Shown here piece by piece: positions 1,331 to 63,933 of a stretch of 64,000 nucleotides of DNA. A program made the translations under genes and the position numbers. Where the stretch lies: the NCBI GenBank assembly GCA_964016885.1, contig OZ024743.1, positions 279,372,001 through 279,436,000 on the forward strand, in the 5' to 3' direction. Origin of the DNA: Eledone cirrhosa (lineage: Eukaryota). Every line of letters begins with the position of its first letter. Position 1 is the stretch's first letter. The notes beneath the pieces are model-generated. The model had not been told where the DNA came from. It searched no databases and worked only from the letters and a program-made list of their open reading frames with translations.

Positions 1331-1512
1331 AGGAACGAGTAGGACCCCGACGGCTGAGCTCAAGCCGTTTCGACGGCTAATTATGGACTGAATCAGCCGT
1401 CGAAACGGCTTGAGCGCAGCCGTCGGGGTCCTACTCGTTCCTATTACCCACTCTACTACCCTTAGTATTGAGTACTTTGGTCCACCTCGTTCCTTACCAC
1501 ATTTCCTTCGTT
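1331..1512 (+). repeat. Family A fold-back mini-element; other copies at 8291-8505, 31406-31525, 33551-33740, 45885-46060, 54165-54306, 54322-54492, 63515-63718
   Basis: ~50-bp inverted arm plus forward arm (GAAACGGCTTGAGCTCAGCCGTCGGGGTC) plus a ~70-80-bp unique tail, in (TA)n. Confidence 0.9.
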
Positions 1513-1564
1513 ATATATATATATATATATATATATATATATATATATATATATATATATATAA

Positions 1565-2335
1565 TAGAACACTGATGGGTTATATCCGTAGCACTAGAGC
1601 ACTAAATCCATGGGACGGGTGTGATAGAAGTAGTTCCACAACAGTCAATTCACCATTTCCGAAAACAATTGTTTCACCTTATTCGGATCATCAGGTCGGT
1701 TTAAATGAGTTTGTACGGAAAAGGAAAAAAAATTGTACGAATACGCATGTGCAGAAACAGTCACTTCCCAGGGGGCAGGTAACCCACATAGGATCGGAGC
1801 AGAGAGACAACTGAGGATACTCAGAATAAAAATAAATTATTCATGTTATTCAGTCCAGAAAATTATTGATTGTTAATGTTAGTCAATCTGGAGCATTGTA
1901 ATTACGTAATGGGTCTTTCCAGACGTGTGGATAATGCGAAAAAAGTTCATTGCTTGAATTTAGACAAGCACTATTATGCACATTTTCATGATATTGATTC
2001 TTTCATCAATGCACACGCTACAAGTCAGATTCCCGTTTGAGTATGGCTTTGACACTTAGTAATAACTTTCCATTGCATGGAGTAATCCACGCTAGTGTTC
2101 TTGAGGGAGCATACGGGGATCGCGAGCTTCTTGGACGATCGTTTTTCAGGGTAGCTGGAAGTCGACAGATGATTCAGAAAGCTTTCTTTAAACCGGCCGT
2201 CCACATACCTACATAGGATTTGAGACATCCTGTTGAATTGGTCGGTTAGAAGTGACCACAGCTTTGTAAATTACAGCGGGTGTGTTACATTGTTGTTGAA
2301 GGGGACACGATTCAGGCCTTCGACAAGAGCATCCT
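1565..2335 (-). mobile_element. 3' end of a Penelope-like element: Cys linker + GIY-YIG endonuclease remnant + HHR-bearing 3' UTR
   Basis: Minus strand reads CSCRRPESCPLQQQCNTPAVIYKAVVTSN, then KSYVGM, DGRFKESFLNHLST, DYSMQWKVITKC and CLNSSNELFSHYPH, with frameshifts. HHR downstream at 1659-1699; ends in (TA)n. Confidence 0.82.
1659..1699 (-). ncRNA. Minimal type I hammerhead ribozyme
   Basis: ccgac CTGATGA tcc gaataa ggt GAAA caattg TT ttcgg; palindromic stem III; one stem I mismatch. Confidence 0.75.
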
Positions 2336-3566
2336 GGTGGGATCTGCTCTTAGCGTTGTTGGTGATGTCCCCCTCAACAACAATGTAACACACCCACTCA
2401 TTGGGCTCAGTGAGGGTAGTGTTGCTGGTGATGAAGTTACATGTGTATTAGTTGGGTTTGGAGTTGAATGAGAGAAAGGATGGGGATGGGGATGGGGAGT
2501 TGCAGGGAGCCGCTTGGAGGCACCGGAAGAGATGGAGCATTTTCCTTTAGAAACGTAAATTGGCCGGAGGTACTTAAAGGAGAATTGGAGTCGGTTGGTT
2601 AATAAATATATTGCGTGTTTCGAAAACGAGAAGCAAGTAAAGCAGAGAACTGCTGTGAACTGAGCTGAGCCATAGTGCAGTCCACTCAATTCCAAACTTA
2701 TCCAAACTAAACCTCACACAACATCTCTTCAACTATAAGCAACCGAATCTGTATAAACCCCTCATACGTTTGAACCCCCAAAATACATCCTACATCTTCT
2801 AGAAGCCCTCCTTTTCGATGATTCCTTCTCTACATAGAAATATTAGTTTATGGATGTCTTAAGAACACTCAATGCAAGCAATACCTACTAAGTTATCTCC
2901 TTCCTCTAGGCTATATACCTACTAAGTTATCTCCTTCCTCAACATTCTTACTACTGATATAAATATAGTGTATCCCGTCACGTAACAACATTGTCGAATG
3001 AAAACGATTTGTCTCCGTAAAATTGAACACCAGTTTAGTTGAATTCCAAATCTCGTCCTCTCTTACAACAACTAGTGATCAATAACAATAGTGTAAACAC
3101 TAAAAGGGTGAACAGAAAAGTTAACATCTGCGTGTGACTGAGAGCGGGGTCTGCATGTATTATTCACTGTTTAAGTCTGACTCCAAAGGGTGGAGAAAAC
3201 ATTGGCCCTGAGGATGGTGATTGAGACCCGCTGGCATAGCCGCTCCACATCACGGGCTTCTCGAGAGCGAGTATCCGTTTCCGCCCGGATAGCAGTACAT
3301 GCATACACACACACACGCACACATTTGCATGTACGTACACACACACAGCGACAAACACACACACACGCGCACGCGCACACACATACACACACACACACAC
3401 GCATATAATTGTTTCTACTTTTGGCACAAGGCCAGTAATTACCACTACATTACTGGTACTTTATTTTATTGACCCCGTAAGGATGAAAGGCAAAGTTAAC
3501 CTTGGCGGAATTTGAACTCAGATCATAAATGGGCGTAACTTATATATATATATATATATATATATA

Positions 3567-60376: not shown

Positions 60377-60570
60377 AGGGCCGGAGAATTGGCAGTATCG
60401 GTAGAGAGTTGGACGCCATGCTTTCCAGCATAGTTACATCTCTTTACAGTCTGAGTTCAAATCCCGCCGAGGTTAACTTTGCCTTCATCCTTACAGGGTC
60501 GATAAAATAAAGTACCAGTAATGTACTGGGTTATTGCTGGCCTTGTGCCAAAAGTAGAAACAATTATTAT
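60377..60570 (+). mobile_element. tRNA-derived SINE, full length; tandem partner at 60174-60365
   Basis: A box TGGCAGTATCGG, B box GAGTTCAAATCC, core GCCTTTCATCCTTACGGGGTCGATAAAATAAAGTACCAG, (ATT)n tail. Confidence 0.88.
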
Positions 60571-61671
60571 ATGTTATATATACCTCTATATACTGTGTAT
60601 ATATATATATATATATATATATATCACTCATATGAAAACCTACAGTGTTAATATAACATATATAGGCTTAGTGGTACGTACTGTGTAAGACGAACAACTT
60701 AGGAACGAAAAGCCTCTTGGAACGTAACTCGTTTGTAAGTTGGAGACTTTCTGTATATACTGTATATACGACGAACAATCACCAGTATCTTTATCTCGTT
60801 AGCCACCTTTCTGGCATGCACATTCGGACGTTAAGGTGGCATTACACTTGTGATTAAAATTTGTGCAACAGATTGGAAAACAACTTTGTCATATATATAT
60901 AATGTATATATATATATATATATATACATGTGTGTGTGTGTGTGTGTGTGTGTGTGTGTGTGTGTGTGTACATATGTATGAAGGAAACAAAAAAGAGAAA
61001 AACTAGAAAGAAAGAAGTTCATATAGTATCTCTTGTTGTGGCATTTACCTAATTAAATGATAAAGCTAAAAACCCTCGTTATCAAATATCAAGCTGCCAT
61101 TGTCCCAGCCAATTTTCAGCAGATTTATCAAATTCAGTCCGTGATTTTAAGTACTAAATCAACAATGTCTCTATTGGAAATCGTATTATGCATGAATTTT
61201 TCTCGCAAATAATCCACAATCATTACTGCAAGACGTCTCGTAAAACATTGCCCAATACCAAAATATTATTTTCTTTACATTTCACTTTGGCAATTGTAGT
61301 TTTCTAATTAAATGATGATTATCACAAAATGAATGATAAAGGTCTTTTATATTTAAGAATTTTAATTTGTTATTTGATGTTTCCATTGTTTATTTGCTTG
61401 GTGTTCTACCTGTTGTTGTTTTTGATGTTACTTTAGCTGTTGTTGTTGCGTTTATTGTAATCTTTGTTCTGGTTCTTGCTTATATTCTGTATATAAATAT
61501 TTATAATGTTACCATATACTTCGTTTGTTTTGTGCAATACTGTATGGTATATTCGTGGTTTTTCCATTCCCTACGATTTTCTTCACGTAGACATTCTTGT
61601 CGCAGCTCAAATATATGTTTCTTTAAACATCGAATATTTTCAAAAGGACCTATCCCGTTTTAACTGAGTAA

Positions 61672-61985
61672 ATAGGTGAACTGTCGGTGACTAAACCGGC
61701 AACCCCAACGAGCTTGTTTTGTGAGGAGGATGATATTTGGACAACCTGCGGGATGAAATACAAGACCCGGCAAAGGGCGGAGGAACTCAACAGTCAACGG
61801 CCATCCAAATAGTACTTTTTTTCCAACTGGAAGAGAACGGCCCCCAGTTGTTGTCACAGCACCTTTCTAGGAGAGAGAAACTCTGAAAAAGAAAAACCTG
61901 CGGCTTCGGAAGCATCCGACGATGTTGACCAGTTCTCCTTTTCCGCAAGTGTTTTCGATGCTCAGAGAGTGGGTTTGGTCGAATG
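61672..61985 (+). mobile_element. RTE-like LINE 5' UTR fragment
   Basis: CTAGGAGAGAGAAACTCTGA..AAACC and AAGGGCGGAGGAAC resemble motifs I recall from RTE 5' UTRs. Confidence 0.4.
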
Positions 61986-63933
61986 CAAGGCGTTTCCCCA
62001 CTTAGAAAACATTTAAAGCACAGACATTGCTTGTTCAGGATATGTTACAGGTTCGTATGGCTGGCCGTAGCCTAAAAGTGCACCAAAGTCTATAATCTGA
62101 CAAGCGATTGCAATACTCTTAGCAGAGTTTGCAGCCATCATATATATAAAGAATGAAATAGAGAAAGTATTCCATAGTAAGATATACGCAGAGAAATATT
62201 GATGTTGAGATAGAGAAACGGGTAGAATAATCTTTATATACCATATATGTTTGTAAACACAATATGTCAGTATATAAGAATATTCATGGCGATGTGTGTG
62301 TGTGAGGGCCAGCAAGAGTGAGAGAGAGAGAGCGAGGGAGAGCAAGAGAGACAGAGGGGGTGAAGGGGAGAGAGAAGACACAGAGAAGGAAAGAATGAGA
62401 AGGATATATAAAAAAATGAGAAAGAAAACAGTGTGAAGAAAATGTAACAATAGTTAAAATCATGTGATAATTCTGTTTAGACGGATAATTTTATCACAAC
62501 AGAAAATACTTAGAAATGTAGAAAATATCTATTCTTGTTATTCTTGGCATTCCTGTTATTATTGTTATTATTATTAATATTTTCCTATGGTTGTTTACAT
62601 CTCTTTTCTTTTCGAAGTGTGAGTTATTTCACTTCGAGTTTTCTAACCGCCATACACACTCACACAAACACAATTACACACAATTACACACAATTACACA
62701 CACACACACATATATATATATACATATATAAACGTTTGTGTATATATATATATATATATATATATATATATATATATATATATATATATATATATATATA
62801 TATATATATATATATATATATATATATATATGTGCAAGGGTAATGTGCGCGTACGTCGGTCCGGGTCTATATTCCATCAAGAATATATATATATATAAAT
62901 ATATATGTATGCATATATACATATACATATATATATATGTGTGTGTGTGTGTGTGTGTGCGTGTGGATGTGTGTGTGTTCTTTTCTTTCAACCTTCTTGA
63001 AGGTTCTTTCTATAAAATTGCATTTTTTTATATGCTACGGTAACAATAACACAATAGAAAAGAGATTGAGAAGCCGGCTTGATAATTCTCTTGCGATAGC
63101 TTAGTCTGATGAAATGGCTTCTTTCTTAGCTTCATAACACAGCGGATATTGTAACTTGCAATACCTTACCATATATCATGTACATATATACGCACACACA
63201 CATAAGCACGCACACACCCTGTATATATATATATGTATATATATATATGTATATATATATATATATATATATATATATATATATATATATATATATATAT
63301 ATATATATATATATATATACATGCATATATATATATATATATATATATATATATATATATATATGTATTTATATATATATGTATATATATTTACATATAT
63401 ATGTGTATATATATATATATATATATATATATATATATATATGTACATATATATATATATATATATATATATATATATATATATATATATATATATATAT
63501 ATATATATGTATATAGGAACAAGTATGACCCCGACGGCAGAGCTCAAGCCGTTTCGACGTCTAATTCTGGACAATACGCGTCGAGAATTAGCCGTCGAAA
63601 CGGCTTGAGCTCTGCCGTCGGGGTCATACTTGTTCCTATTACCCACTCTACTACCCTAAGTATTGAGTACTTTGGTGCGTTATGGTCCATCTGGTTCCTT
63701 ACCACATTTCACTCATTATATAAATATATATATATTTATATATATATATATATATATATATCCATATATATATATATGAATATATACATATATATATATA
63801 TATATGTGAATATAGACATAGAATATTCGAAAATATTCTGTATGTTTATAATAAACATTTTGAAGACCTAATCGCTATAGAATAGAATACGTCACGTATT
63901 ACAATTAGATTCTCGATAAAAGCAAGGGAAGTA

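Follow-up and report, generated by a model that had tools for sequence, protein, structure and literature searches.

A 64,000-nt stretch of Eledone cirrhosa DNA (GenBank assembly GCA_964016885.1, contig OZ024743.1, positions 279,372,001 to 279,436,000 of the forward strand; hereafter the window) contains palindromic inserts in (TA)n tracts, which, as judged from their sequences, are short 3' fragments, corresponding to the pseudo-long terminal repeat (pseudo-LTR), of several families of Neptune-type Penelope-like elements (PLEs). In 24 of the 25 inserts with two inverted arms of a single family, one outer end lies at a distal site and the other at a proximal site, offset by 35-169 nt, and this layout is common to at least 12 families. 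We consider it likely that cDNA synthesis is primed from each end of a cut (TA)n tract, with a different site used by each end, and that the two incomplete cDNAs are then linked head to head.

Outer ends and Penelope-like identity of the inserts

The window has a GC content of 36% and about 200 TA runs. Self-comparison of the window, with simple repeats masked, revealed inverted pairs, many of which have outer ends abutting TA tracts. The 107 TA-bounded segments no longer than 3 kb were then scanned for an outer 20-mer with an inverted recurrence inside the segment at ≥16/20, which was found in 19 of the 107 segments; as controls, 2140 shuffled segments gave 3 such cases and 1661 random placements in the real window gave 61. 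Together with arm mapping, these comparisons confirm that, at the coordinates given in an earlier note on this DNA, there are palindromic inserts flanked by TA tracts. The curated set comprises 35 inserts (11,812 nt): 25 two-armed inserts of a single family, 9 one-armed inserts, and one two-family joint (45109-45351), which was excluded from the pairing counts because the open reading frame (ORF) of one of its families, family F, has no PLE match. TA is present at both flanks of 23 of the 25 two-armed inserts, a figure that is partly built in because the inserts came from a scan of TA-bounded segments. The automatic arm mapper gave no placement for four arms (left in 54323, right in 48058, 11 nt long in 23356, and the single one of 56382), for which other comparisons were used.

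No two-armed insert has two proximal ends (0 of 25). Five two-armed inserts without a second copy in the window (3568, 31885, 4099, R52, and R29) were dropped from the pairing test because their end labels derive from the insert itself; the remaining 20 informative copies include 19 with mixed ends (P = 2e-5 versus independent end choice at the most favourable 50%). Eight of the nine one-armed copies have the distal end and one has the proximal end. The tails, delimited by the two sites, measure 80 nt in family A, 74-83 nt in family B, 90 nt in family D, 35 nt in 3568-3835, 84 nt in 31885-32124, 70 nt in R52, 169 nt in R29, 59 nt in family E, 48-58 nt in family G, 144-148 nt in the 8001/22142/53697 family, and 161 nt in family H, and the lengths given earlier agree with these measurements within 2-3 nt.

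The outer ends had been described as one fixed proximal and one fixed distal site per insert. The mixed pairing holds for 24 inserts but not for 44823-45085, which has two distal ends, and in families B, D, and G the ends shift by 4-12 nt. For family A, seven of the eight copies are two-armed, and the proximal end lies at -80 from the distal end in six of the seven and 4-5 nt downstream in the other. The asymmetry noted for the 8001/22142/53697 family was observed in the two-armed insert 53695-54078, whereas the remaining members are one-armed. The assignment of the distal end to the forward (long) arm proved not to be fixed, as shown by 46415-47794, whose long arm, bearing a reverse transcriptase (RT), ends proximally.

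For family A, the ends were also followed in raw reads of restriction-site-associated DNA (RAD) libraries with the same species label (two runs, ~12.5 million reads each), of which 25,124 and 26,051 aligned to a linear family A arm (8366-8512). This mapping stood in for a genome-wide end histogram, and the reads carry no pairing information per insertion. The largest loose end among those listed was an (AT)n stretch that directly followed the proximal site (3304 reads in one run and 2797 in the other), and a further 1273 and 1523 reads ran into (AT)n at the proximal site of a subfamily; 491 smaller loose ends lie beyond those listed. At the distal site, the coverage continued into TA with little loss (~9,800 and 10,900 reads at 8511-8512). 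The two sharp outer-end peaks that had been predicted were thus seen for family A in both runs. A read run of another species (X6) gave two contigs only, and the metagenome scans gave no match.

The PLE assignment is supported by the 1.4-kb insert 46415-47794 of family G, which carries a broken RT on the minus strand, with a weak RVT_1 match, 66% identity to its best relative, an Octopus vulgaris protein, and 56-73% identity to homolog P0001 in tblastn. This RT-bearing copy obeys the common grammar, as its long arm ends close to the proximal site of family G and the distal end is carried by an inverted arm of 18 nt, in agreement with the PLE origin proposed earlier. The endonuclease region is deleted in this copy. 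In longer relatives, DKSG and the RT are followed by a C-terminal CX2CxxC plus YIGET-type endonuclease region, as read by eye in homologs P0005, P0015, P0020, P0022, and P0030, and this order is given as the Neptune arrangement in the available text of PMC8557442; Pfam called no GIY-YIG domain in the 11 RT homologs. An inverted 5'-truncated copy together with a one-ended tail, which characterizes endonuclease-containing (EN+) PLEs, was found in 24 of the 25 two-armed inserts. Assignment to the Naiad clade was considered and rejected, because hammerhead motifs are present and the endonuclease motifs follow the RT in the homologs.

In a relaxed scan, 13 hammerhead motifs were found, compared with 0.2 per shuffle, and 9 of the 13 lie inside listed inserts; a stricter first scan had overlooked those in which a bulge precedes stem II, and the relaxed rule was written after the motifs had been seen. 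The motifs occur in families B and E, R52, R29, and the 8001/22142/53697 family, and were recognized by eye in family G'. Family A has only a 3'-half-like motif, and the scan found none in families D and H. The stem I sequence varies among the family B copies, with its pairing kept. R52 (466-nt unit), R29 (595-nt unit), and family E show partial tandem read-through, and the continuation of these tandem copies past the distal site places both sites inside the RNA. All three consist of non-coding tandem units that have no PLE protein match and contain a hammerhead motif, a feature of non-LTR retrozymes. Some of the families are probably non-autonomous hammerhead units.

Inner junctions, insertion mechanism and alternatives

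The inner junctions had been described as variable, with a broad distribution. The junctions are indeed all different, also among the seven two-armed family A copies, two of which contain filler (A15 and 11 nt), but in family A one side of the junctions clusters within ~12 nt of one 5' limit, so that the broad spread is only half true. Opposite-strand joints were also seen in the raw reads, so that an assembly artefact is not the source of the palindromes; 12 of the 14 listed joints have one side within 8366-8379, with the second side anywhere between 8377 and 8467. The best-supported joint, 8377/8421, found in both read sets and six contigs, corresponds to that of the window copy 54167-54304. 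This joint may originate in few loci, and it was not scored as many loci because the window itself contains one such locus. About 2,800 reads per run share an upstream extension beyond 8377, indicating that one family A subfamily extends further 5' than the copies in the window. About 6,900 read ends pile up at 8375 but were not accepted as evidence of a fixed 5' end; the position is an AATT in a RAD library, and the pile-up is probably a restriction site, the enzyme not being on record. Several arms of other families have their 5' limit at or just before the hammerhead core (48983, 49864, 53530, and 31780), two of them directly against a TA tract; at this limit the RNA may begin or be spliced, or the RT may stop.

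The arms abut or leave a gap in 6 of the 24 mixed copies (54167, 23356, 46415, 42534, 53695, and 43371). Because non-overlapping arms cannot be mutual copies, two separately primed cDNAs fit these inserts best. In the mechanism that we favour, a GIY-YIG endonuclease would cleave both strands within the (TA)n tract. One DNA end would then prime reverse transcription at the distal internal RNA site; the other would do so at the proximal site, which lies 35-169 nt upstream, in many cases with help from TA pairing over 3-5 nt; whereas the ends are observed here, the priming is proposed by analogy to PAc, a Poseidon-clade PLE of Anolis (Frangieh 2024, PMC11167929). Both cDNAs would extend toward the RNA 5' end and stop early, and their 3' ends would be joined head to head via microhomology or filler. 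If a single end primed, usually at the distal site, its cDNA would be joined directly to the TA end, leaving a one-armed copy. Abutting arms would reflect two primers on one RNA, and overlapping arms strand displacement or a second RNA. The order of priming, the joining step, and the number of RNAs are what we infer from these inserts.

TA microhomology of 3-5 nt was observed at 7 of the 12 proximal sites, compared with 1.3 expected for a random phase (P = 1e-4) and 2.5 for the best phase (P = 0.004). In this test, the boundaries of family H 43371 and of 22248 are imperfect, and family G scores 0 or 4 depending on the copy, of which 0 was taken. The three scorable distal sites gave 3, 1, and 0 nt. 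As for the two defined TA-like priming sites proposed in the earlier note, two internal initiation sites are supported by the RT-bearing copy with the common grammar, by the tandem copies that run through both sites, and by the two-site initiation of PAc in vitro (PMC11167929); the TA-likeness applies to 7 of the 12 proximal sites and not to the other 5. In addition, an 11-nt motif is common to the tails of families A and B, with 12 matches, all within these tails, where 1.9 were expected.

Several observations weigh against the priming of one cDNA at each site. The end pairing was counted in one 64-kb window only, and 1 of the 25 two-armed inserts combines two distal ends. The arms overlap in 18 of the 24 mixed copies, for which a single RNA is insufficient without strand displacement, and the palindrome centres are open to deletion after insertion. 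Only 0-2 nt of TA homology was found at 5 of the 12 proximal sites, families A and B are related, so that their sites are not independent, and initiation by PAc is described in the available text of PMC11167929 as non-homologous and without strand preference between its two sites. With respect to the PLE identity, the PLE-type RT is physically linked to family G only, and families D and H and three singletons have neither an RT nor a hammerhead match. The Rfam HH9 scores (R52, 38.6 and 34.4 bits; family E, 17.6 bits) all lie below the gathering score of 52, and Rfam found no hammerhead at 7968-8250 or 30780-31350.

The overlapping arms would also arise if one primed cDNA or RNA folded back on itself and an endonuclease or TA microhomology resolved the second end at the proximal site, and self-priming of this kind has been published for head-to-head Penelope palindromes (PMC3846280, as far as its available text extends). 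The TA homology at the proximal site would serve such joining too, and the proximal arm is the best or tied-best match to its own distal arm in five of six family A copies, a concordance that is equally expected if a single subfamily is active at a time. On the other hand, the 6 non-overlapping copies of 24, and about half of the copies, in which the proximal arm extends further 5' than the distal arm, could not have been copied from the distal arm unless the centres were later deleted. We therefore regard self-priming as unlikely.

The fixed outer ends and the recurrence of the 8377/8421 joint in both read sets and six contigs could suggest that a ready-made palindromic master was amplified into (TA)n in the manner of a miniature inverted-repeat transposable element (MITE), with junctions diversified by later deletion of the centres. 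However, all seven family A junctions differ, and the two fillers (A15 and 11 nt) are impossible by deletion. Moreover, the tail sets the two ends off against each other, so that they do not form terminal inverted repeats, the same ends are used by one-armed, tandem, and RT-bearing copies within a layout that at least 12 families share, and the recurring joint may derive from few loci, one of them within the window. Amplification of a palindromic master is thus very unlikely.

It is similarly improbable that the two arms are two separate insertions, the later copy having entered the 5' end of the earlier one in the opposite orientation. PAc cleaves its own pseudo-LTR in vitro, according to the available text of PMC11167929, and the window contains both back-to-back neighbours (54167/54323) and two families joined in 45109-45351; nevertheless, independent events would not yield 19 mixed pairs of 20, arms of the same subfamily, and TA on the outer sides only. 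(TA)n tracts are fragile, and hairpin-like duplications flank TA tracts at 1237-1315 and 23098-23205, but the patching of spontaneous cruciform breaks by the host with abundant RNAs or cDNAs, without a PLE endonuclease, can hardly be the source of the inserts, since repair capture is not expected to use two fixed RNA sites per family and since a short interspersed nuclear element (SINE) in the window has a single 3' end, no inverted arm, and a 17-nt target-site duplication in one copy.

Going beyond the priming of one cDNA at each site, we tentatively raise the possibility, to which we give less than even weight, that the two PLE initiation sites form an ordered pair, each used once per insertion. 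An asymmetric dimer of the RT-endonuclease might start from one DNA end at the distal site and thereafter from the other DNA end at the TA-like proximal site of the same RNA, as a programmed twin priming that replaces second-strand priming. If true, this single rule would account, throughout the PLE clades, for the tail as well as for the inverted pseudo-LTR and the head-to-head junction.

Individual inserts and neighbouring repeats

For family A, the two-armed copies on the plus strand are 1332-1511, with an inverted proximal arm and a distal arm (80-nt tail minus a 10-nt deletion), 8292-8504, with the A15 run at the inner junction and the distal arm that served as the read-mapping reference, 33551-33738, a subfamily member with the proximal end displaced by 4-5 nt, 45887-46062, which has a SINE fragment instead of TA at the distal end, 54323-54490, with a diverged proximal arm, and 63516-63717, with a foreign spacer of 11 nt. 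On the minus strand, the arms of 54167-54304 abut, the 82-nt distal arm ending at the proximal site, and 31408-31543 is one-armed with the distal end.

The two-armed copies of family B are 53389-53588 (minus), in which a hammerhead-like motif lies immediately upstream of the proximal site, 51230-51544 (plus), whose proximal arm contains a complete minimal hammerhead motif (core 51278, minus strand), 31670-31840 (minus), with (GA)n at the distal flank, and the diverged 48058-48232 (plus), with its proximal end ~11 nt downstream. Two family B copies are one-armed with the distal end, namely 48983-49109 (plus), which begins at the hammerhead core beside TA, and the diverged 56382-56534 (minus). 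For family D, 5287-5439 (minus) is two-armed with a 90-nt tail, 7122-7302 (minus) has the same outer ends and another junction, and 23356-23391 (plus) is a mini-insert with a 24-nt proximal arm and an 11-nt distal arm that do not overlap.

The single-copy two-armed inserts 3568-3835 and 31885-32124 (both plus) have 35-nt and 84-nt tails, respectively, and 4099-4283 (plus) has a 126-nt tail; its family is doubtful and may be SINE-derived. R52 (52368-53376) is a palindrome of the 466-nt tandem unit in which each arm has its own hammerhead and the tail measures 70 nt, and R29 (29926-31361) is a palindrome of the 595-nt tandem unit with a mutated-core hammerhead in both arms and a 169-nt tail. Family E includes the two-armed 5476-6075 (hammerhead motif 5822, 59-nt tail) and the one-armed distal 49139-49581 (plus; hammerhead motif 49277).

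For family G, the insert 46415-47794 (minus) contains the broken Neptune-type RT fragment at 46576-47770, its long arm being proximal and its 18-nt inverted arm distal, and 44823-45085 is the exception with distal ends on both sides. The family G/G' mini-insert 42534-42578 combines a distal and a proximal end in non-overlapping arms, whereas 45109-45351 joins an inverted family F end to a family G arm ending proximally and represents a chimera or a third site. Family G' also has two one-armed distal copies, 45435-45820 (plus) and 49612-49864 (minus), the latter with a hammerhead core at its 5' limit. In the 8001/22142/53697 family, 53695-54078 has a distal and a proximal end, non-overlapping arms, and a hammerhead motif at 53971; 7967-8250 (plus) is one-armed distal and 22109-22248 (plus) one-armed proximal. 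Family H is represented by 43371-43821, with a ~347-nt proximal arm, a 104-nt distal arm that does not overlap it, and a 161-nt tail, and by the one-armed distal copy 43832-44721 (plus).

Family F (42715-43301 and 45109-45200) uses the same end site three times and stands head to head with the family G arm; its 138-aa ORF on the minus strand (42764-43180) has no PLE protein match, and its Atlas scores are ≤0.85. Hammerhead-like motifs lie outside the listed inserts at 6452, 50147, 50784, 63968 (minus), and 6741 (minus), and 49925-50360 has a 22-nt stretch in common with the R52 proximal end. At 1237-1315 and 23098-23205, inverted copies of 24-28 nt flank a TA tract tail to tail, reflecting either a fold-back duplication of the flank or two facing insertions.

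A SINE-like family, a label that is our own reading, has about 10 copies with one 3' end (3408, 19298, 20134, 23338, 28842, 41086, 46159, 55140, 60362, and 60564); 20134-20189 is the copy with the 17-nt target-site duplication, and a tandem pair occupies 60157-60570. A broken non-LTR retrotransposon at 13072-16963 (RVT_1 by domain search, E = 3.5e-22) has a second 3' copy at 35596-36882 with 93% identity in the self-comparison of the window. Another element, resembling long interspersed nuclear elements, has two decayed copies at 26451-28268 and 58363-59320 (RVT_1, E = 3.5e-6; 65-73% mutual identity). A 340-nt direct repeat (23412-23751 and 24017-24357, 95% identity) has TA runs beside both outer ends. 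Rfam microRNA matches in the window were rejected as simple-repeat noise.

Comparison with known systems

According to the available texts of PMC8557442 and PMC8969392, an inverted copy, a one-ended tail, and a (TA)n target are standard PLE features. For EN+ PLEs, a 5'-truncated inverted copy beside a direct copy, a tail that is often one-ended, and partial tandems are described (Craig 2021, PMC8557442; Arkhipova 2013, PMC3846280), and (TA)n is stated as the preferred target for Naiads (PMC8557442). In their available parts, these two sources explain the tail by endonuclease resolution, ascribe the palindromes to self-priming, and give no counts of end pairing, and the origin of the inverted arm is still called undefined (PMC8557442). 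With dozens of very short copies per 64 kb, such a genome offers a natural record of this step, in which end pairing, arm overlap, and microhomology are countable over thousands of events. The palindromes make up 18% of the window, and annotation would mistake them for MITEs or microRNA hairpins.

In the twin priming of L1, reportedly described by Ostertag and Kazazian in 2001, the second target end is said to prime upstream on the RNA, so that the 5' part is inverted, with microhomology at the second site and abutting arms. Compared with this scheme, the second site here is fixed for each family, priming on poly(A) is absent, and the arms overlap in 18 of the 24 mixed copies. The literature search, which left older subscription papers mostly outside its scope, found no paper with one-of-each pairing or with a two-end or twin priming model for PLE inversion; the distal bias of one-armed copies, the non-overlapping arms, and the 3-5 nt proximal TA microhomology were likewise not found by it.

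Hammerhead units derived from PLE ends have been described (PMC4209133; bioRxiv 10.64898/2026.07.22.740005), and the motifs in the window share with minimal PLE hammerheads and non-LTR retrozymes, so far as these reports are available, the type I form, a short stem I, a palindromic helix III, and a frequent bulge before stem II. The tandem units of 450-600 nt in R52, R29, and family E are as in these systems. In contrast, the arms here contain little more than one unit and are arranged head to head rather than in long arrays.

The closest parallel is PAc, for which the available text of PMC11167929 reports that, in vitro, both strands of AT-rich DNA are cut and extended and that reverse transcription starts at two internal sites, one at each edge of the tail. 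The inserts share with PAc the paired internal sites at the tail edges, the AT-rich target, and the hammerhead upstream; the cutting and extension of both strands seen for PAc would be a further common feature. The two-site origin of the tail and the two-strand extension are therefore already published, and the inference of the earlier note is largely anticipated. The PAc work in vitro ends before the second-strand steps and, in the available text, leaves inverted copies unexplained and does not pair the two sites within one insertion. The present elements differ from this Poseidon-clade PLE in that their RT is of the Neptune type, their tails measure 35-169 nt as compared with 30-40 nt, and TA microhomology is present at many sites, as opposed to non-homologous initiation. 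Overall, the inserts of this one window add to the PAc scheme a count-based pairing rule, long tails, and partial TA homology.

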